Position numbers and translations under genes: made by a program. Source: Bacteriovoracia bacterium (lineage in GTDB: Bacteria > Bdellovibrionota > Bacteriovoracia > Bacteriovoracales > Bacteriovoracaceae). Taken from it: DNA of 64,000 nt. Location of the stretch: contig JBKHVI010000003.1 of assembly GCA_046570105.1 (NCBI GenBank), positions 1 through 64,000 on the forward strand. Reading direction: 5' to 3'. The notes under the pieces were generated by a model. The model searched no databases, was not told the DNA's origin, and saw nothing but the letters and a program-made list of their open reading frames with translations. Positions within the stretch are counted from its first letter, which is position 1; every line of letters starts with the position of its first letter. This document shows positions 18,916-51,860 of this stretch, piece by piece.

Positions 18916-18943
18916 AGAAACCTCTTCGTTTATAATATAAGGT

Positions 18944-35344: not shown

Positions 35345-35600
35345 AAAAGCCTAAAATATCTACGTAAGTTGTGCCCTTCGCCAGTGACGAAGAAGATTTC
35401 GCGCGCTGACCTTTGATCCAAATTTTCTTTTCATTAAAAAGATCTTTCAAGGCCGTGCGAGAGATCAATTTTAACTTCATATTCTCGTCCTGATCTCTCA
35501 GGGCATTTAATAAAGTATTGTCCATGCGCGACTCTGGATTCTCCAAAGTGAGGGCAATACGAAAAGAATTGGGAACAGTTGCTGGCATCGAATCACTCAT
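35343..35600 (-). CDS. Small hypothetical protein, possibly S4-like
   Basis: RMD..L...SR..LK.LF....I.I.G pattern (weak). Confidence 0.6.
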   Translation of the reverse strand: MSDSMPATVPNSFRIALTLENPESRMDNTLLNALRDQDENMKLKLISRTALKDLFNEKKIWIKGQRAKSSSSLAKGTTYVDILGF

Positions 35601-35607: not shown

Positions 35608-36084
35608 CTATTTACGTTTAAAAGTTACTACTGTGTTACGAACTTCATGGTCAGTTGATTCTTCATCCCAACCAATAATTGTCATTCTTGCTGTTACGCT
35701 TTCATCCGAAACTGACAGAACCTCAAAGTAAGCGATTCCTTCATCTTGCGAGATACGGTAGCTTTCGCCGACCGACCAAGTGCTAGGATTTTCAGATGAG
35801 TCGTCGTTATCCCAGTAATACCAGGTATCGGCAACCGTCAAATCATCCTTACCTACATATTCGCAGACTTCAGAGATCATCCCGCCGTCTTTGCTCCAGG
35901 TATAAAAGCCCACAACAGCGTCTTTACTATTAGTTAAATAGTTAACTTCAGTAAAACCATCCTTGACCCAATCAGCGATTGAATCCTCGAGAGACACTAA
36001 CTGAGAGCTTGAGCAAGCCTTCAGCTCACGCGCCATTGCACTGAACGAAAGTGTTAGCATTAAACCAAAAATGAGAGTTTTCAT
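35608..36084 (-). CDS. Secreted acidic hypothetical protein
   Basis: AGGAG RBS; signal peptide ending AMA. Confidence 0.75.
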   Translation of the reverse strand: MKTLIFGLMLTLSFSAMARELKACSSSQLVSLEDSIADWVKDGFTEVNYLTNSKDAVVGFYTWSKDGGMISEVCEYVGKDDLTVADTWYYWDNDDSSENPSTWSVGESYRISQDEGIAYFEVLSVSDESVTARMTIIGWDEESTDHEVRNTVVTFKRK

Positions 36085-36273: not shown

Positions 36274-37275
36274 CTAAGGATATTTCTCAACTAGTTGAGC
36301 TGCTAGCTCCTCCGCATCGGAGCGAATCCCACGCAAGAAGCGAGAACGAAAGTCTTTGTTCCTGGGGGAACCTAGATAATAGACATTAGGGTGTGGAAGT
36401 GGGGCCATGTCTGAAAAAGAAAATCCAGTTGTAAAAATGAGCACATCACATTTTATAGGTGAACCATTTTTAAAAAAAACCTCATCACTGGATATTCTCT
36501 CAATTATTCCACGACAAACAATAGGCTTATGTTTGATCAATTTATTTACTGACTCATCCATCAGAACTGGAAAGTTCAAACGAGGCCACAATCTCGCGAC
36601 GAGTGCTTCAATGCCTATGCTAAACCAGACAGGCAATTTATGAATCCATGCTGGTGAGAAACGAATGGGACTGCGATGACTGATTATAAAACTGACTTTG
36701 CCTTTCGTTTTTAATTCAATCTCTTCAATAATTTGTCCCGCCGATAAACGGCTTCCAACTATGAGTACTTTTTTGTTGGTGAAATCAAACTTGTCTGTAG
36801 GGTTATCCACGAAATGAAAGACCGGGATGCTCGCCTGACTAATGATATCTTTTGAAAGTGAATAAGCAGGATTATTCCAGTACCCGGTAGCAAAGACTAC
36901 TGCCCGTGCCTTGATTGATTCGTTATCTGTTTGCAAAATTAGTTCGTTGCTTTTGGAATCGATCGTTAATACGGATTTATTATATTCGACAGAGAGATGA
37001 TGCTTGCGCGCGTACTCGGCAAAATAGCCATGTATTTCTTGCGCTGATAATTGCCTTTTGCTTGGAAAAAGTTCGCGATCTTCACTATCAAGATGATTCA
37101 TCGCCCAGGGTGTCAGAATTTTAAGAAATGAAGGCATCGCTTTAAAAGAACTCGCCGGCCCCTCTGCCTTCTCTAGCACTCGATGAGGAATATTTCTGCG
37201 TAAAAGTTCGCGCGAGAGCTTAAGCCCAGCTGGACCAGCTCCCACGATAACAATCTTGGCAACATCATGTGGCAC
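36274..37275 (-). CDS. FAD/NAD(P)-dependent oxidoreductase (CzcO/flavin monooxygenase-like)
   Basis: GAGPAG, FATG, degenerate second dinucleotide motif VGSRLSA, TGF, and RGIR.DA. Confidence 0.8.
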   Translation of the reverse strand: MPHDVAKIVIVGAGPAGLKLSRELLRRNIPHRVLEKAEGPASSFKAMPSFLKILTPWAMNHLDSEDRELFPSKRQLSAQEIHGYFAEYARKHHLSVEYNKSVLTIDSKSNELILQTDNESIKARAVVFATGYWNNPAYSLSKDIISQASIPVFHFVDNPTDKFDFTNKKVLIVGSRLSAGQIIEEIELKTKGKVSFIISHRSPIRFSPAWIHKLPVWFSIGIEALVARLWPRLNFPVLMDESVNKLIKHKPIVCRGIIERISSDEVFFKNGSPIKCDVLIFTTGFSFSDMAPLPHPNVYYLGSPRNKDFRSRFLRGIRSDAEELAAQLVEKYP

Positions 37276-37280
37276 TTTGA

Positions 37281-38780
37281 TTAAGCAAAAGTCGTAAGCT
37301 TAACTCGCTCAGGTTCATTCACACCTTCAAGATCCAAGCGCTTATCTTTGAAGCGATGGATATTGTTATAAGCACAGCCAGGCATCAATCGACCATCAGG
37401 TAGAGCATAGTGGGTACAACATTTGCGAATACGTGAGACCTCAAAGTCAAACTCGTCCATAAACGCATGAATGAAAATCGCTTTAACTTTAGTTTCAGAA
37501 AGCTTCCAAAGCTGCTCTTGTCCAAGAGTGCCAGCGCCCTGATATTCGTTCAAAATCGACTTCAATGATTGCAGCACCTGCTCTGTATCAACCGTGACAC
37601 TTTGTGCACTCCAGAGATTATAGATGGCATCTTGAATGAGCTGTTGGGCTTTATCATCGGCTTCTAAGATTGCTCGATTGGTAAGCATGTTGAGATAAAC
37701 GGCTACGTCACCAAAGTGAGTCAAAGGAACGAATTTACCGTTGTCCAACTTCAAAACGTAACAAGCGGTATAACAAGAAGGATGCGAGCATGGGATAGGG
37801 AGAAAATCTTCTTTTTTGAGCCAATCAGTTTGCTTCTCAAGTAACTGATGAATATCCACTTGTGTAAGACGTCCCATTGGATCTTGTGGGAATGAGGTTC
37901 CGCCGGCACCAGTATACGCTGCTGGCTGAATAGTCACCGAGGTAACAAAGTCATGCTTAAGCGCAAAGTCGATAACTTCACCTAATTCATGATCGTTGAA
38001 GCCGCGGGCAACTGTTGGAACGAAGATCGTGGGAATATTATATTTCTCACACATCTCGAGCGTTTTCATTTTTGTTTCAAGTAATGAGGCACCACGAAGT
38101 TTTTTGTAATTCTCGTTGTTCAAAGAATCGAACTGCAATGAAAGATAAAGACCCATATCCTTAAAGCGTTTGGCAAATTCTTCGTCCTGAGCAATTTTAA
38201 TACCGTGAGATGAAACCAAAACACGCTTAATATCTTTTTGCTTACAGGCGTATTCCGCTAATTCAAAAAACTGTGGATGAAGTGTCGGCTCTCCACCCGA
38301 AAGTAACATCAACTCAAGACTTCCTTCTTTACGCAGAAGTCCGTCAGTGATGTTTTTAAATTCCTGCAAAGACATATTATAATTGTTCTGATTCCAAACA
38401 ATACAGATGGGGCACTTAAGATCACAGGCATTACTAATTTCAACAATGGGAGAACATGTATGCTGTTCATGTTCTTCACAGAGCCCACAATCATCAGGGC
38501 AGCCATCTTTAAAATGGGTAGAGAATTCTTTCGGCTTAGTTCCAGGTTTGGTGTAAGTCAGACTTTTAACCCAATAATCAACATCAGATGAGAGAAGTGC
38601 TTCAAACTCACCATGGTGAAAACAGCGTTTCGTAAGAATAACTTTATTGTCGCGAAAAATAATTTTGGCCTGAATAGTTTTGCGACATTTGGGGCAGATT
38701 GACTGTGTCGCTGAAAAGAATGAGCCTTTACGGTCTTCTTTATCCTTAAACGTATTAGTTCCGCAGCATCCTACATCCAT
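37281..38780 (-). CDS. Radical SAM enzyme of the tetraether synthase (Tes/GDGT-MAS, MJ0619) family
   Basis: Rubredoxin-like SICPKC...K.C..HG; CPDDCGLCEEHEQHTC auxiliary cluster; CDLKCPIC; SGGEPT; HPSC; FMD.FDF...R.RKCC.HY..PDGR..P.CAYN. Confidence 0.85.
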   Translation of the reverse strand: MDVGCCGTNTFKDKEDRKGSFFSATQSICPKCRKTIQAKIIFRDNKVILTKRCFHHGEFEALLSSDVDYWVKSLTYTKPGTKPKEFSTHFKDGCPDDCGLCEEHEQHTCSPIVEISNACDLKCPICIVWNQNNYNMSLQEFKNITDGLLRKEGSLELMLLSGGEPTLHPQFFELAEYACKQKDIKRVLVSSHGIKIAQDEEFAKRFKDMGLYLSLQFDSLNNENYKKLRGASLLETKMKTLEMCEKYNIPTIFVPTVARGFNDHELGEVIDFALKHDFVTSVTIQPAAYTGAGGTSFPQDPMGRLTQVDIHQLLEKQTDWLKKEDFLPIPCSHPSCYTACYVLKLDNGKFVPLTHFGDVAVYLNMLTNRAILEADDKAQQLIQDAIYNLWSAQSVTVDTEQVLQSLKSILNEYQGAGTLGQEQLWKLSETKVKAIFIHAFMDEFDFEVSRIRKCCTHYALPDGRLMPGCAYNNIHRFKDKRLDLEGVNEPERVKLTTFA

Positions 38781-38880
38781 AGATTCTCCTGGTGAGGAAA
38801 CACCCTACCATAAGGCCAATTTTAGATACAAGTTCCGAATAACCGAGCTTTTTTTTTGCTTTTTTGTCAGAATAGCAACC

Positions 38881-41049
38881 ATGTGGTCACGACTAAACTT
38901 TTTACGCTCACCGCTATCGGTGCTAGCGGTCTTTATAGGCTTTCTGGGCCTTAGTTTTTCTCAACTAAAAAATCTTCGTACCGAGCTACAAATTTATCAC
39001 CTGGACGATACACGCTTTAAAACGGCGCAAGATTTTCAGCGTGTCCGCAAAAGTTTTGCTGACCCTGCTTCGTTTCAATTGCACTGGTCGAAGCAAAATG
39101 GGCCTTTCACCATGGTTGAAGTATGCCAGATAGAAAAGCTTGTAAGAAATCTCAAAAAACTTACTCCTATCAAGGGAACTTTCATTGCCAGCATCAGCTC
39201 TCCGCTTGATCTGCGCACCTTTGAACTGACTGGCAGTCGCCTGTGGTTTCCCCGACTCCTCAGTGTGCAGTGCCAAAATCCCACAACGGAACCCGTCGAC
39301 CTCACTCCGCTCTATAATTTTCCGCTCTATCTTCAGCCGCTCACAACTGCTGCCATTCTTTCTTACAACCTGAAGCTCGCAACTGAATCCGACAAGGCAG
39401 AAAATGCTCAGCCTGACATTATCGGTGAAGCGTATGTAAAAGCTTTGCAACTACAAAAGGAAATACCAGGTCTTGAGCTTCACATTGCAGGCCGCGGGGC
39501 GACTCCTTGGCATATGCAAAAAATGATGATGAGTGATGCTCCGATTAATCTATTGGTCTTTCTCTTCATTTTGATTTTCTTTCGTCTTTTTCACGGGTCT
39601 TGGACAAGTGGCTTTCTGCTGACCGGCTCCCTTGTGACGACTCTCACCATTTCACTCGGTGTGATGGCTTATCTTGATATTCCAATCGACGCTCTCACTA
39701 ATACCCTATTTATCCTGGTTATTATTTCTGGAGTTGAAGACTACATCTTTCTCGTGGAAGAGAAGCGAAAAAATCCTCAGACGCAAGTAAACCAACCCTT
39801 TATTAAATTGCGAGCTCCCAGCTTTTTCACCTCTCTTACGACTATCATAGGGTTCGGAGTATTAGTTTTTTCTAGAATAGAAATCATCCAACGCTTTGGA
39901 GCGATCGCCGCTTTTTCCGCTTTGATTGAATGGTTTATTTTACTCTTCGCACTTCCCGCACTGCTGACACTTTTCCCAGCACTTGCTAACAAGTGGCTGC
40001 GAATAGACAAAGCTTGGGCACCTCGCTGGCTAGATAGTCTGGCGACATTGCGCCCCTCCTTCATAGTAAGTGTCATTATGGTTGCCATTTCTTTGGCAGG
40101 ATTTTTAGCATTCTCACACTTGAAATATAATGATTCTCCGAGGGAAAATTTCCCAATTCATCATCCTGCTCATAAAGCCTATGCTTTTTTAACACAGCAG
40201 TTCGGCTCTGAAGGATCACTGGAGATCGTCTTCCCGGCGAAGCATGCAAAACCTAAAAACTTTGAAGAAAAAATTTCTTCCATCTCTGGTGTCGTCAAAA
40301 TCCATTCACTGCCTGCTCTGTTTCATGCTATTCCACAAGACCTACCCCAAGAAGTCACTGAAGATATTAAACGCCATATTATGCAGACTGATCTCGCCCA
40401 ACATTATCAAAATGATGAGTGGGAAAGATGGGTCGTGTATGTTCAATCGATAGATCAAGAATCTTTGAAGAAAATGATTATTCAGATTCAAGCGATTTGT
40501 CAGGATACCTGTTTCCCGAGTGGCGAACTCGTTGTCTACGCAGACTTCGCAGATGAAGTCGCGAGCACACTTTTTAAAGGACTTGATCTCTCACTTTTAT
40601 TAGTGGGACTCACAGTCATCTTCTTGTGTTGGTGGAGAAAGATCAAACCCCTCTGGCCGGTACTCTTTAGTCTATTTTGGTGCCCACTAATGCTGTTGTT
40701 GGTGCTAGTGGTATTTAATGTTCCCATCAATCTGATGACTTGTTTAATAGGAGCCATTTTTGTGGGGCTCTCGGGTGATAACTCTATTCAGTATTTATTT
40801 GCCAGCAAGAATCTTGAGGATGGAGCGCTTGAGCGCTCACGTGCCACTGTTGTATTAACCATACTCTCAATGTGCTTATGTGGCTTCTTATGGGGATTTA
40901 CCCTTCGGCCGCTGCACACCGTAGGAACATTGCTGGCCGTCGGATTTGCTTTTATTCTGATTGGTGATCTGTGGGTATTACGAGGTTTACTTCATAAAGC
41001 GAATCGTGGGGCCAACACGCGCACCAAAGATTCAATTGAAACAAACTGA
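38881..41049 (+). CDS. MMPL/RND family (HpnN-like) lipid exporter
   Basis: Two repeats of TM + periplasmic domain + 5TM; GVEDYI, TSLTT..GF..L..S...I..FG and GLSGDNSI motifs. Confidence 0.8.
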   Translation: MWSRLNFLRSPLSVLAVFIGFLGLSFSQLKNLRTELQIYHLDDTRFKTAQDFQRVRKSFADPASFQLHWSKQNGPFTMVEVCQIEKLVRNLKKLTPIKGTFIASISSPLDLRTFELTGSRLWFPRLLSVQCQNPTTEPVDLTPLYNFPLYLQPLTTAAILSYNLKLATESDKAENAQPDIIGEAYVKALQLQKEIPGLELHIAGRGATPWHMQKMMMSDAPINLLVFLFILIFFRLFHGSWTSGFLLTGSLVTTLTISLGVMAYLDIPIDALTNTLFILVIISGVEDYIFLVEEKRKNPQTQVNQPFIKLRAPSFFTSLTTIIGFGVLVFSRIEIIQRFGAIAAFSALIEWFILLFALPALLTLFPALANKWLRIDKAWAPRWLDSLATLRPSFIVSVIMVAISLAGFLAFSHLKYNDSPRENFPIHHPAHKAYAFLTQQFGSEGSLEIVFPAKHAKPKNFEEKISSISGVVKIHSLPALFHAIPQDLPQEVTEDIKRHIMQTDLAQHYQNDEWERWVVYVQSIDQESLKKMIIQIQAICQDTCFPSGELVVYADFADEVASTLFKGLDLSLLLVGLTVIFLCWWRKIKPLWPVLFSLFWCPLMLLLVLVVFNVPINLMTCLIGAIFVGLSGDNSIQYLFASKNLEDGALERSRATVVLTILSMCLCGFLWGFTLRPLHTVGTLLAVGFAFILIGDLWVLRGLLHKANRGANTRTKDSIETN

Positions 41050-41372
41050 GCCAAGTCTTTGGGCGCTAAGTTATCCGCTGGATTCAACCCTGGAAGTAAG
41101 GGTGCTAAGCGTTTTTTTGCTTCATCACTTAAGATATCATTTTGAACGGCTTCTTCACGACTGAGTCCAGTGCGCTTAAGGAAATCAAAATCATTTTTTT
41201 CTAATTGAATATTGAGGTCACCTTCAAGTTGGAAAATGATATCCATAAAATCCAACGAGTCAGCACCCAGATCAGTCATGATCTTGGTATCAAGAGTCAA
41301 GTCTGCTTCTGATCGCGCCATACTACGGGCGACACAGGCAATAACATTTTTTTCAAGTTCTGAGCGATTCAT
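40992..41372 (-). CDS. Acyl carrier protein, extended (126 aa)
   Basis: DLGADSLDFMDI phosphopantetheinylation motif; long insertion after helix II/III. Confidence 0.9.
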   Translation of the reverse strand: MNRSELEKNVIACVARSMARSEADLTLDTKIMTDLGADSLDFMDIIFQLEGDLNIQLEKNDFDFLKRTGLSREEAVQNDILSDEAKKRLAPLLPGLNPADNLAPKDLAQFVSIESLVRVLAPRFAL

Positions 41373-41384
41373 AGAATTTTCCTC

Positions 41385-42083
41385 TTACCATAAACTATAG
41401 CCACCATCGACTGGAAGTACTACTCCAGTTATCGCTGATGCATCATTAGATAACAAAAAACTGCAAGTTTTTGCAATCTCTTCAGCACGAATTAAGCGCC
41501 CCATCGGTACCATTTCAGCAGGATCAACTCCATTTTCTTCCTTAGATTGGCGCAACATTGCCGAATCAACGGGTCCTGGTAAAACGATATTGATTCGCAC
41601 ATTACGCTTGGCCATTTCGCTGGCAAGAGCTTTGGTTAATCCTTCTAGTCCTGCTTTAGTAGCAGAATACACCGCATGACCACGAGTCATACGATGAGCA
41701 GAAACACTTCCCATTAAGACAATACTGCCGGCACGTTTTTTAGAAAATAAAGGCAGAAGCAGTTGTAAAAACTTAGTGGGTGCAAGCATGTTGGTTTGAA
41801 ACATTTCATTCAAATGCTCTTCAGCTAATCCCATCAAAGGCCCACTGTGATGGATCCCCGTGCAATCAACATAACCGACCAAATCTTCTTGGCTCACTTT
41901 CATGATAAGATTTTTGCAAAGTTCAGGATTATTAACGTCCAATTCAAACCAATCAATGGGTACAGCTGGGTTTTTCTCGCGTCGAAAAGTTCCAATAACA
42001 TTAAAACCGCGACTCACTAAATCTTGCGCTACAGCGAGACCAATCGCGCCCGATGCACCAGTCACAAGGATAGTTTTTTTCAT
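41385..42083 (-). CDS. FabG-like SDR (ketoreductase)
   Basis: TGASGAIG, S...YSATK, PGPVDS and VDGG motifs. Confidence 0.9.
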   Translation of the reverse strand: MKKTILVTGASGAIGLAVAQDLVSRGFNVIGTFRREKNPAVPIDWFELDVNNPELCKNLIMKVSQEDLVGYVDCTGIHHSGPLMGLAEEHLNEMFQTNMLAPTKFLQLLLPLFSKKRAGSIVLMGSVSAHRMTRGHAVYSATKAGLEGLTKALASEMAKRNVRINIVLPGPVDSAMLRQSKEENGVDPAEMVPMGRLIRAEEIAKTCSFLLSNDASAITGVVLPVDGGYSLW

Positions 42084-43294
42084 TCTGCACTTCCTAGGAT
42101 TAAACAAGAGTTATGGCCACCAAAGGCAAATGAGTTCTTAAGTACAATTGAAAAATGCCCCTTGCGTGGCTGACCTAGTACGTGATCAAGCTGGCATGAC
42201 GGATCAATCTCCGTGGTGTTAATCGTCGGATGTAAACTCTGCTGCTTCATACATAGAAGAGCACCCACTGTTTCAAGTGCCCCACCCGCAGCAATTAAAT
42301 GGCCTGTCATAGATTTGGTAGCAAAAACAGGAACACTCATTGCTCGGACACCTAACAACGTTTGGATGGCCTTCGTTTCCATCACATCGTTTTTTGGTGT
42401 TGATGTTCCATGTGCATTCACAGCACTAATATCATTCGCCGTGATCCGTGCATCAGCTAATGCATGTTTCATCGCTCGCAGTGCGCCTTCTCCGTCTGGA
42501 TGAGGATCACTGGGACTATATGCATCCATACTGTGGCCATGGCCTAGAATGAATCCTTGAATGTCAGCACCTCGCTTTTTGGCATTCTCTTCACGCTCTA
42601 ACACCATGAAAGCTGCTCCCTCACCAAGCACAAAACCATCACGATTTTTATCAAAAGGCCTAGAAGCTTTTGTAGGTTCATCATTACGTGCACTCAGCGC
42701 ACCTAATAGACAAAATCCACCCAGTCCCATGGGATTCACCATAGAATCTGTCCCTCCGGCAACAACCACATCTACCTCGCCCGAACGTAAGAGCTCGAGG
42801 GCTGTTCCTATCGCATCAGTACTCGCCACACACGCAGAGAGATGAAGTCGCGGAGGTGAGTGCAAGGAGAATTCGTGAGAGATCAAGTGAACCACTCGTT
42901 CTGCAGGATAATTTAGAAAAGCGAATTTATCTTCATCTGTTACCGCCGGGTAACGGTTTTTTTGCCAATCAATTAAGTCCGGGACGTGAAAAAGTTCAAG
43001 ACCCAAACCTAAACTTAAAGCACATTTCTTAGGAGCATAATGTCCATTTAACTGCGCCATAGCCATCGCTTCTCGGGCAGCTAAAATGGCAAACGACATT
43101 TTCACATCACGCTGATCCAAGACGATGGCAGAATCATCGACTTCTCCGGCAATTTGGGTCTGGTACCCACTTGGATCAAAGCGAGTGATGCGTTTAATTC
43201 CCGACTCACCTTTTTGTAATGCCTGATAAAATGCTTCACAGCCAATACCATTTGGAGAAACAACTCCCATCCCTGTGACAGCGATGCGTTTCAT
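42080..43294 (-). CDS. Beta-ketoacyl-ACP synthase (FabF-like, active)
   Basis: SACVAS (Cys), NAHGTST (His), KSMTGH (His), SRPFD..RDGFV.GEG and NSFAFGG motifs. Confidence 0.93.
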   Translation of the reverse strand: MKRIAVTGMGVVSPNGIGCEAFYQALQKGESGIKRITRFDPSGYQTQIAGEVDDSAIVLDQRDVKMSFAILAAREAMAMAQLNGHYAPKKCALSLGLGLELFHVPDLIDWQKNRYPAVTDEDKFAFLNYPAERVVHLISHEFSLHSPPRLHLSACVASTDAIGTALELLRSGEVDVVVAGGTDSMVNPMGLGGFCLLGALSARNDEPTKASRPFDKNRDGFVLGEGAAFMVLEREENAKKRGADIQGFILGHGHSMDAYSPSDPHPDGEGALRAMKHALADARITANDISAVNAHGTSTPKNDVMETKAIQTLLGVRAMSVPVFATKSMTGHLIAAGGALETVGALLCMKQQSLHPTINTTEIDPSCQLDHVLGQPRKGHFSIVLKNSFAFGGHNSCLILGSAE

Positions 43295-44166
43295 AAAGTC
43301 GCTCCCATCGAAAAATGGTAGCGATAGTAATCATTTTTATAAGAAAAATGGATGACTTCTTTTTTCAGACGTTTCTGTTGAAGTGTATAAAGATCTTGCA
43401 CTGGCCCCAGATGTTGATCAATCTCAGTTTTAAAGCCGATCTCTTGAACTCCACCTGGTGGATGATATTGCATTTCAATTGGACTAACCAATCTGCAGTT
43501 CTGGTGGGTACCCTTACGTGCTAAAAGCCACATGCCTCCACAGTCAGGAGTTAAGACATTTTCAGGAAGACCCATCTTGCGGTTATAATTTTTTACCAAC
43601 GGATTTTGCTGATGAGTCGCCGCTCCCACGAGGGCATAGTCTACCCGGCCTCGACGCAAATCATGCATGGCTGCTGCCAACGCCTGGCCCCACTGATAGC
43701 GATCAGGATATGTCACGAGATAAGCTTCTTTGAGGCCGTAGTTATGAGATAGATGAAAGGCGGCCATATTGGGTAGACACTTAAATGTTGTCAGTGGATT
43801 AAGCGAAGGCATCGCTTTGGTCACAAAGTTCTCTTGTGAAAACTCTCCTTCAATTTGAGATTTCTCACCAAGAATACGAAGCTCTCGTTCTTCAAATGGC
43901 AGAACACCTACACACAAATAAAGTCCGGTACGCTGATTTCGTGTTTCTTGATCAAGTGGATACTGCTCAAGCACCTGGTGACAGGCTTCCATCGCAAGCA
44001 TATCCATCTTTGACATGAATTTAAGATTTTTGGGTTGCACTAAACAGCGACGTACATCAAGACTCACTTCTTGATTCGCACCACCTTGCAAGATGTCGGG
44101 CCCCACAAAAGATGAGGCTAGGAGAACTATCTCAGAATTGGACACGGCTGAAGCTCCCGGCTCCAA
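43291..44166 (-). CDS. Truncated KS-like protein lacking the catalytic Cys (chain-length-factor-like)
   Basis: LKFMSK, NPL..FKCLPNMAAFHLS..YGL and AL..A...L..G.VDYALVGA N-terminal KS motifs, with no ACxS; start may be GTG at 44145. Confidence 0.75.
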   Translation of the reverse strand: MEPGASAVSNSEIVLLASSFVGPDILQGGANQEVSLDVRRCLVQPKNLKFMSKMDMLAMEACHQVLEQYPLDQETRNQRTGLYLCVGVLPFEERELRILGEKSQIEGEFSQENFVTKAMPSLNPLTTFKCLPNMAAFHLSHNYGLKEAYLVTYPDRYQWGQALAAAMHDLRRGRVDYALVGAATHQQNPLVKNYNRKMGLPENVLTPDCGGMWLLARKGTHQNCRLVSPIEMQYHPPGGVQEIGFKTEIDQHLGPVQDLYTLQQKRLKKEVIHFSYKNDYYRYHFSMGATL

Positions 44167-44606
44167 ATTTTATAAATCTGCAGACGCTGTGCTGTTAGCG
44201 CATTGGACTCCACTTCTAATAGAGTCATCATCAATCTCCCCTGAACTCGAATCTCATCCCCACAACGTGCTTCCACACTCAGCATAGCTGTCTCATCAAT
44301 GAGAGAATCAATTTTGGCAAAATAATCAAGTGCATCGCCTGGCCGACTCGGAATCTTGAATTTCATTTTATCAACAGTAGAAAGCACTGCCCTTCTGACG
44401 GGGCGAGAGGCATCTTGATTATGAGTTGTTTCCAATAAAAATCCTGCCACTTGTGCCAGCCCCTCTATAATCAGCGCACCGGGGAAAATTGGAATATCGG
44501 GAAAATGATCGTGGAGGACTTCGTCAGTCAAAGTCACGCACTTGCGAGCTTTAATTGTTTCACCTAATTTAAGCTCTTTAATGACATCAAAAAGAAAATA
44601 TCTCAT
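44127..44606 (-). CDS. 3-hydroxyacyl-ACP dehydratase (FabZ-like)
   Basis: HFP..PIFPGALIIE.LAQ and KF....PGD motifs. Confidence 0.92.
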   Translation of the reverse strand: MRYFLFDVIKELKLGETIKARKCVTLTDEVLHDHFPDIPIFPGALIIEGLAQVAGFLLETTHNQDASRPVRRAVLSTVDKMKFKIPSRPGDALDYFAKIDSLIDETAMLSVEARCGDEIRVQGRLMMTLLEVESNALTAQRLQIYKIWSRELQPCPILR

Positions 44607-45298
44607 AGGGCCCCATCGGCGACGACTGACTCGCCAGTTATATACGTATTATAGGTAAGCATTCCATGCACTAGCTCTGCCACTTCATTTGGTTTCATAT
44701 ATCTGCCGAGCGAACAGTGTTTTAAATATTTATCTTTCAAACCTCGTGGAAGTTGCTGCGATACTTTCCCTTCAACAATTCCCATACAAAGTTGGTTCAC
44801 CAGAATTCCATGCTCTCCCAACTCGTGGGCGGCAGATTCCACAAGACCTTTCAGTGAGGCTTGGCATTGCGAATAAAAAACCGGAGCGGTTTGAGTCTTC
44901 ACTCCATCGAGAGTATTAAGAAAAAGTATTTGTCCTTTTTCATTCAAAAGCCGCTTTGCTTCTTTAATCAGTAGAAAGGGAGCTTCCACTCTTATTTTGT
45001 AAAGCTCATGCATAAACTCTGGGGTTGTTTCTTCCGCGGTTTTAAAAGCAGGATAATCACTTTTGAGAAGTTGCTTAAAATCAATTTGAGCGGCGTAAAC
45101 GATGGCATCATGGCCCGCTTTCAAATCCCAAGGTTTCAAAAGATTAAGTTCAAATCCTTTGGCACCGAGTGCCTCGAGATTTCTTGCTTCTTCGCGATTG
45201 CGACAAAATGAAAAGGCGACTTCGTGGTGCTCTAAGCGCAAATGCTTAACCAATTCACGGCCAATTTCTCCTGTGCCCCCAATAACAAGTATTTTCAC
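44603..45298 (-). CDS. SDR with a degenerate catalytic motif
   Basis: GGTGEIG Rossmann motif; YSQCQ in place of YxxxK; ITG...ADG. Confidence 0.8.
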   Translation of the reverse strand: MKILVIGGTGEIGRELVKHLRLEHHEVAFSFCRNREEARNLEALGAKGFELNLLKPWDLKAGHDAIVYAAQIDFKQLLKSDYPAFKTAEETTPEFMHELYKIRVEAPFLLIKEAKRLLNEKGQILFLNTLDGVKTQTAPVFYSQCQASLKGLVESAAHELGEHGILVNQLCMGIVEGKVSQQLPRGLKDKYLKHCSLGRYMKPNEVAELVHGMLTYNTYITGESVVADGAL

Positions 45299-46023
45299 TA
45301 AAAACCTCCATCCATCAAAACGGTGGAGCCAGTCATATAGCTATTCTTTTCTGAGATCATAAAAGCAGCGAATTTTGCGACTTCATCAAATTCGCCCACT
45401 CTCCTAAGTGCCACATGGTTTTCATAATCTTTCACCATATTGTCAGGAAGATTACGTGCAACCCCTTCTTTGAGCAGTCCAGGTGCCAAGTTCAATACTC
45501 TCACTCCATAGCGACCCACTTCTTTTGCAAGTGTAGCTGTAAAGCCATGCAGAGCCGCTTTGCTAGTTGCATAGTGCACGGGAGCGGCCAGCATTTTCTC
45601 TCCCGCTAGAGAGCCGATATTGAGCACGACACCTTTTTTACGACGAATCATGGGTGGTAAAAATACTTGCGTCACATGAAAAAGACTCTTGGTGTTGCCA
45701 TAAACGACTCGATCCCAGTCTTGTTCATCCTGTAGTGGAAAAGGCATCGCCTGAGAAACGCCGGCATTGTTCACTAAAATATCAATAGTCACATTCTTCT
45801 CATCCAAGTTTTTTTTGAGAGTTTCCATATCCGAACGCTTGAGCGCGTCGGCACGAAAATACTCACCACAACCCATCTGGCGTTGTGTTTCCTGCGCTCC
45901 AGCTTCATCGCTTAGATACGTGAAGAAGACGTTTGCTCCCTGCCTTTTAAATTCCAGACAGAAAGCGCGCCCTAAACCTTTTGAGCCACCTGTCACCAAT
46001 ATGTTTTTTCCTTGCAACAACAT
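45298..46023 (-). CDS. FabG-like 3-oxoacyl-ACP reductase
   Basis: TGGSKGLG, NNAG, S...YATSK, APG and MDGG motifs. Confidence 0.92.
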   Translation of the reverse strand: MLLQGKNILVTGGSKGLGRAFCLEFKRQGANVFFTYLSDEAGAQETQRQMGCGEYFRADALKRSDMETLKKNLDEKNVTIDILVNNAGVSQAMPFPLQDEQDWDRVVYGNTKSLFHVTQVFLPPMIRRKKGVVLNIGSLAGEKMLAAPVHYATSKAALHGFTATLAKEVGRYGVRVLNLAPGLLKEGVARNLPDNMVKDYENHVALRRVGEFDEVAKFAAFMISEKNSYMTGSTVLMDGGF

Positions 46024-46785
46024 TTAAGCTCCCACCACATGCAGGCCACCATCAACAAACTGCACAGTACCGGTGACATGCTTTGAGAGCTCACTTGCGA
46101 GATAAACAGCTGTAAGTCCTACATCGTTGCCATTCGTATTTTGGCGCAGTGGAGCTTTCTCTTTGGCCATCAAGTAATGGGCATCAAATCCCTCTACACC
46201 CATCGCCGACATCGTTCTGACGGGTCCAGCAGAAATGGCATTTACTCTTACTCCTTGTGGTCCAAGTTCATGTGCCAAGTAACGCACACTACTCTCTAGT
46301 GCGGCTTTCGCCATTCCCATCATGCCATAGCCTGGTATCACGCGCTCACTGCCGATATTAGTCAGCGCCAGAAGACTTGCTCCCGGATTTAGGTAAGGCT
46401 GTACAAGTTGAGCTAAACGGACAAACGAAAAGGCACTGACTTCTAATGTTTCTTGCAACCCCTTGAGACTGGTGCCCATCAGTCCGCTGGCCAACTCTGA
46501 CGGCGGAGCAAATGCCATGGAATGCACGACAATATCTATTTTTCCCCACGCCTGAAGCGAAGAAGTTAAATTCTTCCAATGATTCTCATCGCGCACATCT
46601 AAAAGTTGGCAAAAACTTGCTGACAATTTTTCTGCCAACGGAACAGCTCTCTTCTCACTACTAGCAATTCCATACGTGAGTGCAATCGATGCGCCTTGGG
46701 CATGGAGACTTTCTGCGATCGACCAGGCCAGGCTTCGATCATTGGCCAATCCAAGAATCAAGGCCTTTTTATTTTGCACTAGCAT
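46024..46785 (-). CDS. fabI: Enoyl-ACP reductase FabI
   Basis: GLANDRSLAW, HSMAFAP, SAFSF, YGMMGMAKAALES and ISAGPVRT motifs. Confidence 0.92.
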   Translation of the reverse strand: MLVQNKKALILGLANDRSLAWSIAESLHAQGASIALTYGIASSEKRAVPLAEKLSASFCQLLDVRDENHWKNLTSSLQAWGKIDIVVHSMAFAPPSELASGLMGTSLKGLQETLEVSAFSFVRLAQLVQPYLNPGASLLALTNIGSERVIPGYGMMGMAKAALESSVRYLAHELGPQGVRVNAISAGPVRTMSAMGVEGFDAHYLMAKEKAPLRQNTNGNDVGLTAVYLASELSKHVTGTVQFVDGGLHVVGA

Positions 46786-46814
46786 TTTCTTTCCTTGTTG
46801 CGGATGATCGATCC

Positions 46815-47771
46815 ATGTCCAAAAACCTTCTTTCACGCTGGTTCGAAGTTTATCAAGAACTCGGTCAGCCCATTGGAATTCATACTTTTCGCGTTGATAA
46901 GCGCGACGGCCAAATTGAGCACCAAGAACACTCACATATCGAGTGGGATGGTTTCAGTCTGGCGGTCTATAAGCTTCGCCAATTAGGATGGGTCATTCAA
47001 CCCCCACGTCGGCTAAAATCATTTTCCCTTTCTTTTTTAGCTAAAGTGAAAGCCTTTTTTCATTATTTAATTTGGGCGCGAGTGAGAGATGTAAGATGGA
47101 AAAAATTTGATGCACAGCGTACTGGTCATAACCCTCCTCAAATTCATGTATTTGAACAAGAAATGACAGAAAAATGGCTTAGAGATTTAGCACAACAAAA
47201 TCTATCACCTAATGCTTGGCTGCTTCACCGTCTGAACAAGCTCACTGCACCGTTAATTCACAGTTCAGAGGGTATTTGGTGGATTCCGGTCGACTATCGT
47301 CCCTACTCAGACTTTTCTTGGGATGAACCTAATGTCGTGTCTCATATAGCTGTATCAATCAACACGTCGCAAAATCCAAGATTGATAGAAACTTTTATTC
47401 AGAAGAACTTAATAGATGGTGCACCTTGGGCGGCCTGGAAATGGATGCAATTGATTGCTAAATTTGGGAAAACAACAATGAAAGGCATCCTGCAATCACA
47501 GCTCAAAAAAAATCGCTGGTGCGGCACAATGACTTATTTGGGACGCTGGCCGAATCGTTTTGCGACTGCTCCAGTGGACACACCCTATCGGCTAGTAGGT
47601 GCACCGCCACCGATGCTGGGACACCCTATCTCGATGGGCGTGAGTCTTATGTGCGATCAACTCTGTGTTGCCTTTACCAGTCATTGTTCCCTTTTTTCTG
47701 AAACTGAATCGCAAATGTTCTTTCATGATTTTTTAGATGAAGTATCAAATGGAATGAAAGGACAAGTATGA
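46815..47771 (+). CDS. CoA/ACP-dependent acyltransferase (condensation/CAT-like HxxxDG fold)
   Basis: SHIEWDG = HxxxDG; IPVDYR resembling PV[DN]LR; N.VS and T.LG.W. Confidence 0.65.
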   Translation: MSKNLLSRWFEVYQELGQPIGIHTFRVDKRDGQIEHQEHSHIEWDGFSLAVYKLRQLGWVIQPPRRLKSFSLSFLAKVKAFFHYLIWARVRDVRWKKFDAQRTGHNPPQIHVFEQEMTEKWLRDLAQQNLSPNAWLLHRLNKLTAPLIHSSEGIWWIPVDYRPYSDFSWDEPNVVSHIAVSINTSQNPRLIETFIQKNLIDGAPWAAWKWMQLIAKFGKTTMKGILQSQLKKNRWCGTMTYLGRWPNRFATAPVDTPYRLVGAPPPMLGHPISMGVSLMCDQLCVAFTSHCSLFSETESQMFFHDFLDEVSNGMKGQV

Positions 47772-48814
47772 GTAAATTTAAATTCATTCTCTCATTTATA
47801 TTTTTTATCGCACTGACTGCTTGTGGAATTTTTGCAGCAGCGATGCAAACAGAGCAGAAAAATTTTAGCTTTGACTTGATTGCCAGTCTTCCTTGGACTG
47901 TTGTCTCTGCATTGATAATTTCTTCCATCTGCATTTATCTAGTTGATATCCTCCGCTTCTTCATTTTCTCTCATATGATTGGAGTACGACTCCAGTTTCT
48001 TCATGCGCTAGAAGCAGCCATCGTAAATTTATTTTTTGGATGGGTAACACCAGGGGCTGCCATGGGTGCACCGGCGGCTGTTTATACTTTAGGCAAGAGA
48101 GGTATCCCGTGGGATGCCTCATTAATTATCTGTTTTGGAAAATCACTAACAGGTTTTGGAACAATTTTATTATTAGCATTTGTTATGATTGCCATGGGTC
48201 TGGGCCCACAAATTGATAATATTTTTATTTATGGGATCTTGTGGAGCGCATCTTTTATTGCCTTCTTTTTTATCGCTCTGCCCATTGTAGGTAGCTTTTA
48301 TTCGGCGTCGACTCACCGATCGTTAGATCGTATTGAACAGAAACTTTTTTCCAAAAATCCTAAGATCAAGCTTCGTGCGAACAAGATATTTAAAGTACTA
48401 AAAGATATGATTGAACGTCTGCGGTTGTTACATAACCAAAGAAAGTTTCTATTTCTCATCGCGCTTGTTTCACAATTACTTTATTTCGCAGCTTTCATTG
48501 CACCCGCCGTTATCGTTTGTCATTATTTCGGAGGAGAGATTAGCAAGGCCATACCCCACTCACTCATTTACACTGCCCTTGCCTATTCTGCGCCGACCCC
48601 TGGTGGAGCTGGTATCTCTGAAGCATCCTCAGTCATTTTCTTTAATACAATTGTGCCAGCGATGAGCGCGGCTTATGTCGGAGTCATCTTCCGAGGATTT
48701 ACTTTCTATTTCCAAATTCTTATGGGGATACTTTATTTCCTTTTTTTTGGTGGGGGGTCTGCCATTCTTAATAGTAAAAATGCATTAGCTGGGAAATCAC
48801 ATGAGCCCAGTTGA
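47768..48814 (+). CDS. Lysylphosphatidylglycerol-synthase TM (UPF0104, flippase-like) protein
   Basis: R......G, VTPGAAMG and PTPGGAGISEA...R.FTFY motifs; multi-TM. Confidence 0.88.
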   Translation: MSKFKFILSFIFFIALTACGIFAAAMQTEQKNFSFDLIASLPWTVVSALIISSICIYLVDILRFFIFSHMIGVRLQFLHALEAAIVNLFFGWVTPGAAMGAPAAVYTLGKRGIPWDASLIICFGKSLTGFGTILLLAFVMIAMGLGPQIDNIFIYGILWSASFIAFFFIALPIVGSFYSASTHRSLDRIEQKLFSKNPKIKLRANKIFKVLKDMIERLRLLHNQRKFLFLIALVSQLLYFAAFIAPAVIVCHYFGGEISKAIPHSLIYTALAYSAPTPGGAGISEASSVIFFNTIVPAMSAAYVGVIFRGFTFYFQILMGILYFLFFGGGSAILNSKNALAGKSHEPS

Positions 48815-49461
48815 ATGTAAACTATTTAGATTTTTTTGACCTTAAACTGATTAAGGAACTGAGAAACAAAATCAAAAGAAAAGAATCACATTTCAAACCT
48901 ATCGAAGCCAAATTTGGCTTCAACCTTCCACTAAGTTTATTAAACGGTATTGAAATTCGAAAAAACTTTCCAGAAATCGTTTCGTTTGCTGAAACGAATA
49001 TCAAGGAATTAGTTGAACGCGAAGTAGGGACGCCAATCAACCTGATGAGAGATAATCTGCGCTCAATTCGTATCCAGCGCTATACTTCTCCCAAAGAGGG
49101 TTTCCTCTGGCATATTGATGGAGCCGACTACACTGTCTTTATCACCTTAAGTAACACTCTCAAAGGTGGAACAGAGTACATCTCTTTTAAACGCAGTTTG
49201 CTGCTAAAACCCTTGGTGTATTTCTATCCTTTTCTCGTGCTATTTAATCGATGCTCCTGGGCCATTCGTCCCTTCGCTCCACGAAGGATGCTGGGCGAAC
49301 CAGGTGATCTTATTCTGTTACAAGGAGGAAAATCGGCCCATAGAACTTATTGTGAGAGTGAGAGCGGCGAGAGACAGATTCTGGCCATAAGCTTTGATCG
49401 AGTGACAAAACCTAAAAACCCTATCTGGGATTTTATTGCGCAAAAGCTTGTGCACCAGTAG
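48811..49461 (+). CDS. 2OG-Fe(II) oxygenase family protein
   Basis: WHID (HxD), GGT, GD.ILL.G....HR (distal His) and R..L.ISF motifs; TTG start coupled to the upstream stop. Confidence 0.75.
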   Translation: MNVNYLDFFDLKLIKELRNKIKRKESHFKPIEAKFGFNLPLSLLNGIEIRKNFPEIVSFAETNIKELVEREVGTPINLMRDNLRSIRIQRYTSPKEGFLWHIDGADYTVFITLSNTLKGGTEYISFKRSLLLKPLVYFYPFLVLFNRCSWAIRPFAPRRMLGEPGDLILLQGGKSAHRTYCESESGERQILAISFDRVTKPKNPIWDFIAQKLVHQ

Positions 49462-50857
49462 ATTTATCTTTAGACACTTTGCTGACATCTTTCGGTACCT
49501 CATTGCCTGCACCGAAATAGACAGGCACGATGCCGCGACGAACTTTGTACATATAATAAAGATTCGACAGCAGATGGTAGTGCTTTAATTTATACTTCCC
49601 TCTCCAAAGTCGAAGTAAAATTGATCGCAGAGAATAGAAGCGACGAAGCGCTCGCCAATAGCCACGCTGAATCTCATCCGCCGACATATGGGGATGCTTA
49701 AAGACCACATAAGACTCTCGAAAATGGCTCAAATCTTTATCGACGATCATTCCGCTATCAAATACTTTCTTTCCGAGAGGAGTCTTAGGATAAGGCGTAT
49801 AAAGAAAGAATTCAGCAATAGACACACCCATCTTCTCTAACCATTCAACAGTCTCATCAAAAGTTTCCTGAGTATCCTCTGGAAATCCGAAAACAATCAA
49901 TGCATGGACAGCAATTCCACTTGCATGAATTTTCTGAATAGCTTTTTCAAAATCGCTAACACGATTAAACCCCTTAGCGACTTGATTCAAATTCTTTTGC
50001 GAGAGCGATTCAAAACCGACGGCAACAAAAACACAGCCGGCCTCTTTCGCAAGCTGTAATAATTCTGGATCTTTGGCAATGTTGACTGTGCACTGTGTTC
50101 CCCAGCCCACCTTAAGATCTTTCATCGCTCGAAAGAGTTCTTTAGAATAGACGACGTCTTCCATTAGATTATCGTCAACGAATGAAAGCTGTCGCGACTT
50201 ACTGGCCTTAATATCTCTTACGACATCGGCAACTGGACGTAAGCGATAGCGCTTTTGATAAAACTCAATGATCGAACAATATTCACAAACGAAAGGACAT
50301 CCGCGAGTTGCCTGGACAGGTAGCACGGCCATGCGACTTTTGTCTGCCAGGTCATAGCGAGGCACCGGAAGATCTTCGAGGGGAAAAGGTTTGTCCTGTT
50401 GGTAGCTTTTTTTGAGTTGCCCATGCTCTATATCGTGAAGCATCTGAAGCCACACTCCTTCCGCTTCACCAACACAATAGGCATCGACATAATCTTCAAT
50501 TAATTCCGGGTGCATGGTAGGAAGGAAGCCTCCCATGATGACAATCTTTCCTCGTTTCTTAAACTCTTTGGCTATCTCTTGAGCGCGTTTGAGCTGCATA
50601 ACCTGGGCATGAATCCCTATGACATCCGCATCTGTGTTAAAATCGACATCTTGGAAATATTCTTCAATCTTTTCTACTTTGATATGACTGGGTGTCATCG
50701 CTGCTAAAATAAGCAAACCCAACTTCTCCACGTTGACTGTCGTCAGACGATTCCACCATCCCTTGGATTGAACGAGTCTGCCCTTGTCGTCATAATGGGC
50801 ACTGTGAATAAACAGTACCTTTTTGATTTTAGGATGAGCTGTCACAGGTTGATTCAT
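49433..50857 (-). CDS. B12-binding-domain radical SAM protein
   Basis: LGLL.LAAMTP, D..GI, V.MGG..PT, GEAE; TRGCPFVCEYC; FVDDN, GFES and TPYP.TP motifs. Confidence 0.92.
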   Translation of the reverse strand: MNQPVTAHPKIKKVLFIHSAHYDDKGRLVQSKGWWNRLTTVNVEKLGLLILAAMTPSHIKVEKIEEYFQDVDFNTDADVIGIHAQVMQLKRAQEIAKEFKKRGKIVIMGGFLPTMHPELIEDYVDAYCVGEAEGVWLQMLHDIEHGQLKKSYQQDKPFPLEDLPVPRYDLADKSRMAVLPVQATRGCPFVCEYCSIIEFYQKRYRLRPVADVVRDIKASKSRQLSFVDDNLMEDVVYSKELFRAMKDLKVGWGTQCTVNIAKDPELLQLAKEAGCVFVAVGFESLSQKNLNQVAKGFNRVSDFEKAIQKIHASGIAVHALIVFGFPEDTQETFDETVEWLEKMGVSIAEFFLYTPYPKTPLGKKVFDSGMIVDKDLSHFRESYVVFKHPHMSADEIQRGYWRALRRFYSLRSILLRLWRGKYKLKHYHLLSNLYYMYKVRRGIVPVYFGAGNEVPKDVSKVSKDKSTGAQAFAQ

Positions 50858-51795: not shown

Positions 51796-51860
51796 GGCTA
51801 AATTCTTCACCGCACAAGCTTAGTTCATGAATGTGGATGGAGACAATTAAAGGTCAGCGC

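Follow-up and report, generated by a model that had tools for sequence, protein, structure and literature searches.

The archaeal radical S-adenosylmethionine (SAM) enzyme GDGT-MAS, or Tes (MJ0619; Protein Data Bank [PDB] entries 7TOL and 7TOM; NCBIfam model NF045702), acts on saturated isoprenoid glycerol diether lipids and couples two lipid tails through a C(sp3)-C(sp3) bond. It holds four metal sites, namely, a CX2CX20CX2H site of the rubredoxin type, an auxiliary cluster near the N terminus that is bound by three Cys and one His, the radical SAM cluster, and a C-terminal auxiliary cluster that has a labile ligand, Met439, and on which the substrate carbon-sulfur intermediate forms (Lloyd 2022; here and below, statements from cited papers refer to the accessible parts of their texts). 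Genome surveys have counted bacterial relatives of Tes, which have been proposed to make branched tetraether lipids; in the same sources they are uncharacterised (Zeng 2022; a 2025 Black Sea study; a 2026 review). Here, we describe a Tes-like enzyme whose gene sits among acyl carrier protein (ACP)-dependent fatty acid synthase (FAS)/polyketide synthase (PKS) genes, at positions 36274 to 50857 of a 64,000-nucleotide stretch (the window; contig JBKHVI010000003.1, positions 1 to 64,000) of the genome of a predatory-type Bacteriovoracia bacterium (GCA_046570105.1; 3.02 Mb in 131 contigs, 87.8% complete). The cluster is real and uncharacterised, and its core recurs across several bacterial phyla. 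With a probability that we put at roughly 0.6, its gene families indicate a dedicated ACP-based line that assembles a specialised lipid or a reduced polyketide, the chain of which would be remodelled by two radical SAM enzymes.

Three other described systems share parts of this design. The membrane-spanning lipid synthase Mss of Thermotoga and Thermoanaerobacter, also a radical SAM enzyme, is proposed to couple two fatty-acyl tails at unactivated carbons, yielding diabolic acids (Sahonero-Canavesi 2022; 2026 review). The chemistry that we propose for the window would be of the same kind; in the accessible accounts, however, Mss is reported to be unrelated to Tes by homology search and to work when expressed alone in E. 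coli, and it is set apart here by that description only. FAS clusters with radical SAM enzymes occur in Kuenenia and some Deltaproteobacteria (Rattray 2009), and anammox Cluster I, as far as the accessible preprint describes it, consists of amxACP, amxFabZ, an amxFabF2/amxFabFmut heterodimer, a phytoene-dehydrogenase-like protein, and a B12 radical SAM enzyme (bioRxiv 10.64898/2026.05.19.726425). The window likewise encodes a private ACP, a FabZ, a flavoprotein, a B12 radical SAM enzyme, and an active ketosynthase (KS) beside an inactive homologue, and its KS and Cys-less partner, encoded by adjacent genes, may mirror the FabF2/FabFmut heterodimer. It differs in adding a Tes-like enzyme and a condensation-type acyltransferase, in belonging to hosts that are not anammox bacteria, in having an inactive KS of 291 amino acids rather than a full-length one, and in having a flavoprotein of the Pyr_redox_3/FMO type rather than a phytoene-dehydrogenase-like one. 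The highly reducing type II PKSs (ishigamide Iga11/12, anthraquinone AntDE, and aryl-polyene ApeO/ApeC) also combine a FabF-like KS and a Cys-less partner (presumably ApeC in the last of these) with a dedicated ACP and discrete ketoreductase and dehydratase; in the window, by contrast, the partner lacks its C-terminal half, an enoyl reductase is present, and two radical SAM enzymes belong to the core. Our literature search turned up neither a report of a Tes-like enzyme encoded within a FAS/PKS cluster nor a characterised pathway of this composition, in line with what the earlier note on this sequence had supposed.

The evidence that carries our reading is the company that the Tes-like gene keeps in other genomes. 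One genome per species was scanned with a profile as the guide; of 600 candidate stretches, 507 encode a Tes-like relative, and the neighbours of the best 80 loci were scored by tblastn with the window proteins and with a hidden Markov model (HMM) of the extended ACP. A KS, a KS-partner, a FabZ, an ACP of this type, or a B12 enzyme is present in 19 of the 26 closest loci (39 to 78% identity) versus 3 of the 54 distant ones (34 to 40%). Titles among the linked loci include Bacteriovoracaceae, Pyrinomonadaceae and other Acidobacteriota, Myxococcota, Planctomycetota, Ignavibacteriaceae, and Parabeggiatoa, and Pfam searches of 65 open reading frames (ORFs) from five loci confirmed the gene families. 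The association of Tes-like genes with chain-building genes is beyond chance. In other genomes and phyla, the Tes-like gene is syntenic with the B12 radical SAM gene and with FAS/PKS genes; a lack of synteny with FAS genes in other genomes is what the earlier note had named as counting against its proposal.

Within the interval, all 15 ORFs that had been listed were found at the coordinates given below, and the family assignments made for them were all reproduced: Pfam and NCBIfam recovered 13 of 15, and the acyltransferase (46815 to 47771) and the oxygenase (48811 to 49461), for which Pfam gave no match at E values up to 10, were recovered by motif, Foldseek, and Atlas comparisons. The features, with the adjoining kinase gene, are as follows (SDR, short-chain dehydrogenase/reductase; 2OG, 2-oxoglutarate).

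36274..37275, minus strand: FAD/NAD(P)-binding flavoprotein (FMO/ArsO-like); Pfam Pyr_redox_3, 81.7 bits; NCBIfam ArsO, 79.6 bits, far under the cut-off.
37281..38780, minus strand: Tes-like radical SAM enzyme, 499 amino acids; Radical_SAM and Zn_ribbon_HMPTM (PF23545, 62.7 bits); Tes model NF045702, 303.2 bits.
38680..41049, plus strand: RND-superfamily MMPL/HAE3-like transporter; MMPL, 32.1 bits; Sterol-sensing, 32.9 bits; HAE3, 66 bits, under the cut-off.
40992..41372, minus strand: ACP, 126 amino acids, with DSL serine motif; PP-binding, 33.4 bits.
41385..42107, minus strand: SDR1, FabG-like reductase; adh_short_C2, 158 bits; FabG subfamily, 167.5 bits (cut-off, 222).
42080..43294, minus strand: FabF-type KS; Pfam N- and C-terminal KS domains; TIGR03150, 393 bits (cut-off, 493.75).
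43291..44166, minus strand: truncated Cys-less KS-like partner, 291 amino acids; Pfam KS_N, 30 bits, over residues 43 to 190 only.
44127..44606, minus strand: FabZ-like 3-hydroxyacyl-ACP dehydratase; FabA-like domain, 54.4 bits; TIGR01750, 88.8 bits (cut-off, 155).
44603..45298, minus strand: SDR2, SDR-fold protein; adh_short_C2, 76 bits.
45298..46023, minus strand: SDR3, FabG-type ketoreductase; adh_short, 158.7 bits; TIGR01830, 182 bits (cut-off, 298).
46024..46935, minus strand: FabI-like enoyl-ACP reductase; adh_short_C2, 239.8 bits from residue 62; PRK07533, 270 bits (cut-off, 337).
46815..47771, plus strand: putative condensation/PapA5-superfamily acyltransferase, 318 amino acids; HxxxDG motif and predicted fold, no Pfam match.
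47768..48814, plus strand: LPG_synthase_TM (former UPF0104) flippase-like membrane protein; PF03706, 88.6 bits, and TIGR00374, 85 bits, both above the cut-off.
48811..49461, plus strand: 2OG-Fe(II) oxygenase-like protein; Atlas likeness and HxD motif, no Pfam match.
49433..50857, minus strand: B12-binding-domain radical SAM enzyme of an unnamed subfamily; Radical_SAM, 72 bits; B12-binding, 30.3 bits, just below the cut-off of 32.1.
50854..51810, minus strand: sensor histidine kinase; HATPase_c, 83.6 bits, and NCBIfam kinase models.

Close relatives separate a core from accessory genes. Among 100 other genomes of the same family, 7 carry a Tes-like homologue, four of them at 63 to 77% identity, and neither of the two same-genus genomes (97 to 99% complete) carries one. 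All four family relatives compared (G054 and locus L005 are the same sequence and were counted once) retain, in rearranged order, the genes for the Tes-like enzyme, B12 enzyme, acyltransferase, SDR3, SDR2, FabZ, KS-partner, KS, and ACP; SDR1 is present in 4/5 same-family clusters, the window included. In the 26 close loci, SDR3 homologues (36 to 53% identity) are the commonest neighbours of the Tes-like gene (23 loci), the extended-ACP HMM finds a match in 16, and the B12 enzyme occurs in 11. The flavoprotein is found near the Tes-like gene in 7/26 close loci (in L022, a Pyr_redox_3 gene follows a pair of Tes-like genes) but in no family relative; the flippase-like gene occurs in 1/26 close loci and likewise in no family relative, and the 2OG oxygenase gene in 1/26. 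The MMPL gene has the same arrangement in L001 (70% identity) and a weak homologue in G042 (23%; Pfam MMPL, L087:15161-17314). The earlier view of all 15 genes as one unit does not hold for five lineage-specific additions, those encoding FabI, the MMPL transporter, the flippase-like protein, the flavoprotein, and the 2OG oxygenase.

Two of these loci show further features. L001 is a 4.8-kb contig titled as a Sericytochromatia bin, in which the Tes-like enzyme, the MMPL transporter, and the B12 enzyme are 78, 70, and 53% identical to those of the window; it is probably a mis-binned contig or the result of recent transfer. In G042, a 2-oxoacid:ferredoxin oxidoreductase gene pair and the MMPL gene lie upstream of the Tes-like gene (L087:12902-15143), and the pair could conceivably supply a starter acyl-CoA.

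The Tes-like protein aligns over its full length with GDGT-MAS (7TOL; E value, 4.7e-70). To place it, we drew 490 superfamily representatives from a 50%-clustered library at an E value of ≤1e-30 and labelled 102 full-length ones with NCBIfam models, by which 13 pass as Tes and 12 as the radical SAM (seleno)protein TrsS; one borderline row was added to each set (447 and 489.9 bits). In the resulting FastTree phylogeny of 192 rows, the Tes clade (14 rows; support, 95) and the TrsS clade (13 rows; support, 99) are sisters in one half of the tree, apart from the window protein. A third clade of 55 rows (support, 100) gathers homologues without FAS neighbours from Flavobacteriia, Paenibacillus, Cyanobacteria, Planctomycetota, and Acidobacteriaceae. 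The fourth clade (66 rows; support, 98) contains all 35 rows that had been classed beforehand as FAS or B12 linked. Within it, the window protein falls in a subclade of 23 rows (support, 100), of which 22 are linked and the exception is a 7.8-kb contig; 12 Acidobacteriota-titled loci belong to this subclade. The Tes cut-off was reached in three archaeal control genomes, and neither the Tes nor the TrsS cut-off (the latter NF045646; 295.2 versus 490 bits for the window protein) was reached by any of 16 bacterial homologues scored.

The metal sites of the window enzyme were compared with those of the four groups. The rubredoxin-type site is C29, C32, C53, and H56, with the exact CX2CX20CX2H spacing; the N-terminal auxiliary [4Fe-4S] site (C94, C98, C101, and H104) is present in 36/36 linked-clade rows and in 13 to 14 of the 14 Tes rows; and the radical SAM CX3CX2C motif (C119, C123, and C126) is invariant in all four groups, as aligned to 7TOL. 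These first three sites are retained in all groups compared. At the C terminus, C336 is present in 36/36 linked-clade rows and C454 and C469 in 35/36 each, and all three occur in 14/14 Tes rows and 13/13 TrsS rows, a conservation that suggests that they are the ligands of the C-terminal auxiliary [4Fe-4S] cluster. The clade without FAS neighbours keeps the three Cys residues in only 16, 1, and 1 of 53 rows (among L027 to L080; examples of the loss are L045, L066, L069, and L071, Acidobacteriaceae-type bins). Because its C-terminal cluster Cys residues are lost, that clade probably does something else. The linked clade has three additional conserved residues, Cys109, Cys331, and Cys455, which further set it apart from Tes. 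Since all four metal sites are kept, the window enzyme would be equipped to couple carbons as Tes does, its reactive cluster being differently ligated, as described below.

Several members of the linked clade occur as tandem paralogues: three Tes-like genes lie side by side in L007 (6583 to 11400) and two each in L009, L022, and L026 (Myxococcota, Planctomycetota, and Acidobacteriota). Within the linked clade, these paralogues fall into different old subclades, and they adjoin KS, KS-partner, FabZ, and ACP genes; the L007 operon also encodes a nitroreductase-domain protein.

The chain-building genes make up a recognizable module. The KS, in which Cys and two His residues are visible, has FabF 1J3N as its best PDB match, and, as in type II PKS pairs of KS and chain-length factor, this KS with a Cys-His-His set is accompanied by a homologous partner without the catalytic Cys. 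The partner aligns to residues 67 to 266 of the window FabF by hhalign (92.6%), has a variable non-Cys residue opposite the FabF Cys, and lacks the C-terminal half with both His residues; its family has a conserved FKCLPNM...FH motif. A phmmer search of the PDB with the partner gave no match. Its AlphaFold2 (AF2) model (pLDDT, 74.5) matches KS and chain-length-factor folds in Foldseek, including AntE (6SMO_C) and the ishigamide pair (TMq, 0.53 to 0.54), and by sequence, model, and analogy the protein is a candidate chain-length-factor analogue. The FabZ-like protein is closest in the PDB to Helicobacter pylori FabZ (70.9 bits). SDR1 has intact TGxxxGxG and YxxxK motifs. SDR2, the gene of which is present in 5/5 family clusters, has lost the catalytic Tyr/Lys pair in 4/5 members (YxxxQ in the window) and is probably a non-catalytic, structural partner subunit. 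The ACP carries a C-terminal extension of about 50 amino acids that is conserved in 8/8 homologues from three phyla.

These genes are additional to the housekeeping FAS genes, as the term "dedicated" in the earlier note had implied. Other FabF, FabG, FabZ, and FabI genes lie on contigs C16, C2, and C4 of the same genome and are 26 to 45% identical to the cluster copies by tblastn, with 36% identity between the cluster KS and the housekeeping FabF and 45% between the two FabI proteins. Besides the housekeeping locus on C16, contig C2 holds a third FAS-like set, with SDR, FabZ-like, and FabI-like genes in a row (18129 to 20046) and a FabF-like gene 11 kb away (31442 to 32647).

The B12 radical SAM enzyme belongs to no named subfamily: its best NCBIfam matches are HpnJ (107 bits), BchE (98 bits), and the ladderane-type model TIGR04072 (93.5 bits), all far under their cut-offs, as is HpnR, and its PDB matches are distant. 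Homologues with 46 to 58% identity lie directly 3′ of the Tes-like gene in many relatives. In the family relatives, the B12 gene adjoins the acyltransferase gene, which is a core gene of the same-family clusters rather than the peripheral one that the earlier note had made it. In one of these relatives (G042; L088:1384-3669), the B12 enzyme and the acyltransferase form a single ORF of 761 amino acids without a stop, with HxxxDG retained in the C-terminal part.

Free-standing condensation acyltransferases of the PapA5 type take an acyl group from a carrier protein and pass it to an accepting hydroxyl or amine. The HxxxDG motif of the window protein (H41, D45, and G46) is invariant in 5/5 homologues, and, in keeping with the earlier assignment, the AF2 model (pLDDT, 76.2) predicts a condensation/PapA5 fold: Foldseek matches it with probability 1.00 to C/Cy/E domains of nonribosomal peptide synthetases (NRPSs), TRI3, and PapA5 (1Q9J), at TMq values of 0.49 to 0.62, and the Atlas structure reaches a TM score of 0.80 to PapA_C/Condensation clusters. 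The predicted two-lobed fold and HxxxDG are thus shared with PapA5 and SgcC5 (4ZNM); the window protein differs in being about 100 residues shorter than those PDB chains, in matching no Pfam or NCBIfam model (Pfam searched to an E value of 10), and in being coupled, once by fusion, to a B12 radical SAM enzyme. It evolves fast, with 21 to 27% identity within one bacterial family, and a word-based search returned only itself and one homologue at 52%. The 2OG-like protein has Atlas scores of 0.97 (features) and 0.79 to 0.89 (structure TM) to 2OG-FeII_Oxy_3/HalD clusters, and its HxD motif is the hydroxylase form of the iron triad. In G035 (L083:13838-17324) and G087 (L086:3448-6928), a PLD-type gene with two PLDc_2 domains and a metallophosphoesterase gene adjoin the acyltransferase end of the cluster; they may encode head-group enzymes.

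The association of the genes was observed directly, and we infer every chemical step from family knowledge; this applies entirely to the coupling, cyclisation, methylation, head-group transfer, and export that the earlier note had envisaged. The extended ACP would be loaded with malonate by housekeeping enzymes. The FabF-type KS, paired with its truncated Cys-less partner as in KS/chain-length-factor pairs, would prime and elongate the chain, and SDR3 (with degenerate SDR2 as its partner), the FabZ-like dehydratase, and, here, also FabI would carry out the reduction in each round. The Tes-like enzyme would then form a carbon-carbon bond at an unactivated chain carbon, either tail to tail between two chains or within one, and the B12 enzyme would add a methyl group or a second carbon-carbon bond. 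As the partner of the B12 enzyme, the condensation-type acyltransferase would take the chain off the ACP and attach it to an accepting hydroxyl or amine. In this lineage, oxidation of the product would fall to the 2OG oxygenase and the flavoprotein, and its passage to the envelope to the flippase-like protein and the MMPL transporter.

A number of results weigh against this reading or limit its reach. The Tes-like protein stays under the curated Tes cut-off (303.2 versus 450 bits), it lies outside the Tes clade, and its superfamily also includes TrsS and another large bacterial clade. The position of the labile Met is His438 in the window protein and His in 34/36 linked-clade rows, compared with Met in 12/14 Tes rows and 13/13 TrsS rows; this placement derives from the MAFFT alignment and the alignment to 7TOL. 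Being below the cut-off, outside the clade, and with His in place of Met, the Tes-like enzyme may therefore have a different chemistry. The tree has local SH-like supports and an arbitrary root, and the 66-row clade includes 29 unlabelled representatives whose genomic context lies outside the linkage classing. Seven of the 26 close loci lack a FAS or B12 neighbour (five of these contigs are shorter than 10 kb), and the loci are mostly metagenome bins. FabI is in the cluster in only 2/5 family genomes (the window and G054), so the chain may not be fully saturated. A five-sequence acyltransferase profile found no match among the ORFs of L001 to L026; the acyltransferase was therefore dropped as a universal member, and offloading would differ in other lineages. 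Among the best 120 B12 homologues, the fusion has one further record, of the same protein, so it is a single-lineage hint of functional coupling. Taken together, the synteny, the extra FAS set, and, within the literature searched, the novelty of composition proposed in the earlier note stand, and its label of "Tes-family" survives at the superfamily level; as written, that label fails on the cut-off, the separate clade, and the replaced Met.

The rival that fares best, although we consider it unlikely, is that the product is a secondary metabolite, diffusible or of the pigment type, rather than a structural lipid. It would be a highly reducing type II polyketide resembling aryl polyenes or ishigamide, and the radical SAM enzymes would only methylate or decorate the chain and form no cross-link or ring. 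The KS with its Cys-less partner, dedicated ACP, ketoreductase, and dehydratase amount to a minimal highly reducing type II PKS set; FabI is missing from 3/5 family clusters; the patchy distribution (7/100 same-family and 0/2 same-genus genomes) resembles that of accessory clusters; a free-standing condensation-type enzyme is a typical natural-product offloader; and B12 radical SAM enzymes, going by model names, are often methylases. However, Pfam finds no aryl-starter, adenylation, methyltransferase, or thioesterase gene in the window cluster, FabI is in the operon of this genome, the Tes-like enzyme retains the auxiliary cluster used for carbon-carbon coupling, and the MMPL and flippase-like genes suggest an envelope destination. 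Membership in the aryl-polyene/flexirubin group itself was rejected, with the flexirubin SDR model FlxB scoring 160.8 bits against a cut-off of 340 and with FabI in the operon.

A rather less probable alternative is that the Tes-like enzyme, like archaeal Tes, acts on finished membrane glycerolipids and links two phospholipid-bound chains at their tails to give a membrane-spanning lipid, like diabolic acid or a branched glycerol dialkyl glycerol tetraether (brGDGT), the FAS genes supplying only the precursor chain. It draws on the proposal that bacterial Tes homologues take part in brGDGT synthesis (Zeng 2022), on acidobacteria that make iso-diabolic acid yet lack Mss (Sahonero-Canavesi 2022), on the E. 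coli phospholipids bound in the GDGT-MAS pocket (Lloyd 2022), on the Acidobacteriota-titled loci in the window subclade, and on the retention of all four metal sites. In the accessible text of the second of these papers, though, Tes homologues are found in only 3 of 14 acidobacteria that produce iso-diabolic acid. The partners of the window enzyme are ACP-dependent enzymes and, in the family, also an acyltransferase of the carrier-protein type, not glycerolipid enzymes, and Pfam finds no ether-lipid gene in the cluster. A sporadic presence within the family is ill suited to a core membrane lipid. As for isoprenoid ether-lipid metabolism, the setting of archaeal Tes, a search of the genome for a GGGPS/PcrB family gene gave no match, which at 87.8% completeness leaves its absence unproven.

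That the locus is a ladderane-type cluster, sharing the anammox Cluster I pathway to fused small rings, is very improbable. The architecture is similar (special ACP, FabZ, active and inactive KSs, flavoprotein, and B12 radical SAM enzyme; bioRxiv 10.64898/2026.05.19.726425 and Rattray 2009), and relatives with two or three tandem Tes-like paralogues could form several carbon-carbon bonds, but no Tes-like enzyme appears in the accessible description of Cluster I. The inactive KS is truncated here rather than full length, and the flavoprotein belongs to Pyr_redox_3, not to the phytoene-desaturase type. Membership was rejected because the B12 enzyme scores 93.5 bits against the TIGR04072 cut-off of 360, the flavoprotein is of another family, and FabZ and KS are nearest to canonical enzymes, ahead of lower-ranking PDB dehydratase and synthase matches that we take to be anammox entries. 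That the genes are chance neighbours without joint action is scarcely credible: five of the 15 are not conserved with the rest and there are five transcription units on both strands, but linkage in 19/26 versus 3/54 loci, the same core in 4/4 family relatives despite rearranged order, and the B12-acyltransferase fusion all argue against it.

Bacterial Tes homologues split into at least two groups, a clade without FAS neighbours that has lost the C-terminal Cys residues and includes Acidobacteriaceae, and a clade that is linked to chain-building genes and keeps them; surveys of "Tes homologues" therefore mix different enzymes. Branched tetraether lipids are widely used climate proxies, and the Cys loss in the clade without FAS neighbours bears on the use of "Tes homologues" as markers of brGDGT producers. 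The linked clade, for its part, comes with a compact and concrete set of about ten genes. Should its Tes-like enzyme join unactivated acyl carbons, bacterial fatty-acid chemistry would gain a reaction that has until now been reported for archaeal lipids alone. A linked-clade member 80% identical to the L009 row occurs in cultivable Sorangium strains, which offer a route to a genetic test.

A more specific and speculative version, which we regard as possible but unlikely, is that the Tes-like enzyme, the B12 radical SAM enzyme, and the acyltransferase form a new bacterial route to bola-shaped or macrocyclic lipids. The KS/ACP line would set the chain length, the acyltransferase would hang chains on a diol or amino-alcohol in the manner of PapA5, and the Tes-like enzyme would weld the chain ends on its His-ligated auxiliary cluster. 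Such a route would be a third independent tail-to-tail lipid coupling, besides archaeal Tes and bacterial Mss; the relatives with tandem paralogues would yield multiply bridged or ring-bearing chains, and orphan environmental lipids of Acidobacteriota, Myxococcota, and Planctomycetota could be explained.

By their coordinates, the genes of the cluster fall into five transcription units on both strands, and they form translationally coupled, tightly packed units. In the minus-strand run from FabI through SDR3, SDR2, FabZ, KS-partner, KS, and SDR1 to the ACP, genes overlap by 1 to 40 nucleotides, with one gap of 12 nucleotides; the plus-strand acyltransferase, flippase-like, and oxygenase genes overlap by 4 nucleotides each; and 5 nucleotides separate the Tes-like gene from the flavoprotein gene downstream. 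Because relatives align only from residues 51 (FabI) and 42 to 51 (acyltransferase) and gene callers use 46815, the most likely start lies near 46785 for FabI and at 46815 for the acyltransferase. The MMPL gene is divergent to the Tes-like gene and probably starts near 38878, since the ORF as annotated overlaps the Tes-like gene.

A scan of the region for promoters and terminators gave the same counts as shuffled sequences, with a single outlier, the hairpin at 35315 to 35340. This hairpin, the strongest terminator-like one of the region (11 pairs, with T-runs on both strands), lies between the end of a plus-strand ORF at 35312 and a minus-strand ORF at 35343 to 35600, where it may terminate transcription begun at the Tes-like gene. 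The latter ORF and another small minus-strand one at 35608 to 36084, both downstream of the flavoprotein gene, match no family (Pfam to an E value of 10 included) and are not conserved beside Tes-like genes elsewhere; the N terminus encoded at 35608 to 36084 resembles a signal peptide. On the other side of the cluster, a minus-strand ORF at 52066 to 55530 (1,154 amino acids) gives weak coiled-coil/SMC-like matches only. The histidine kinase gene between them, at 50854 to 51810, overlaps the start of the B12 gene with its stop by 4 nucleotides and may be part of the unit or its regulator; in G035 and G087, a kinase 25 to 26% identical to it borders the cluster on its ACP side.

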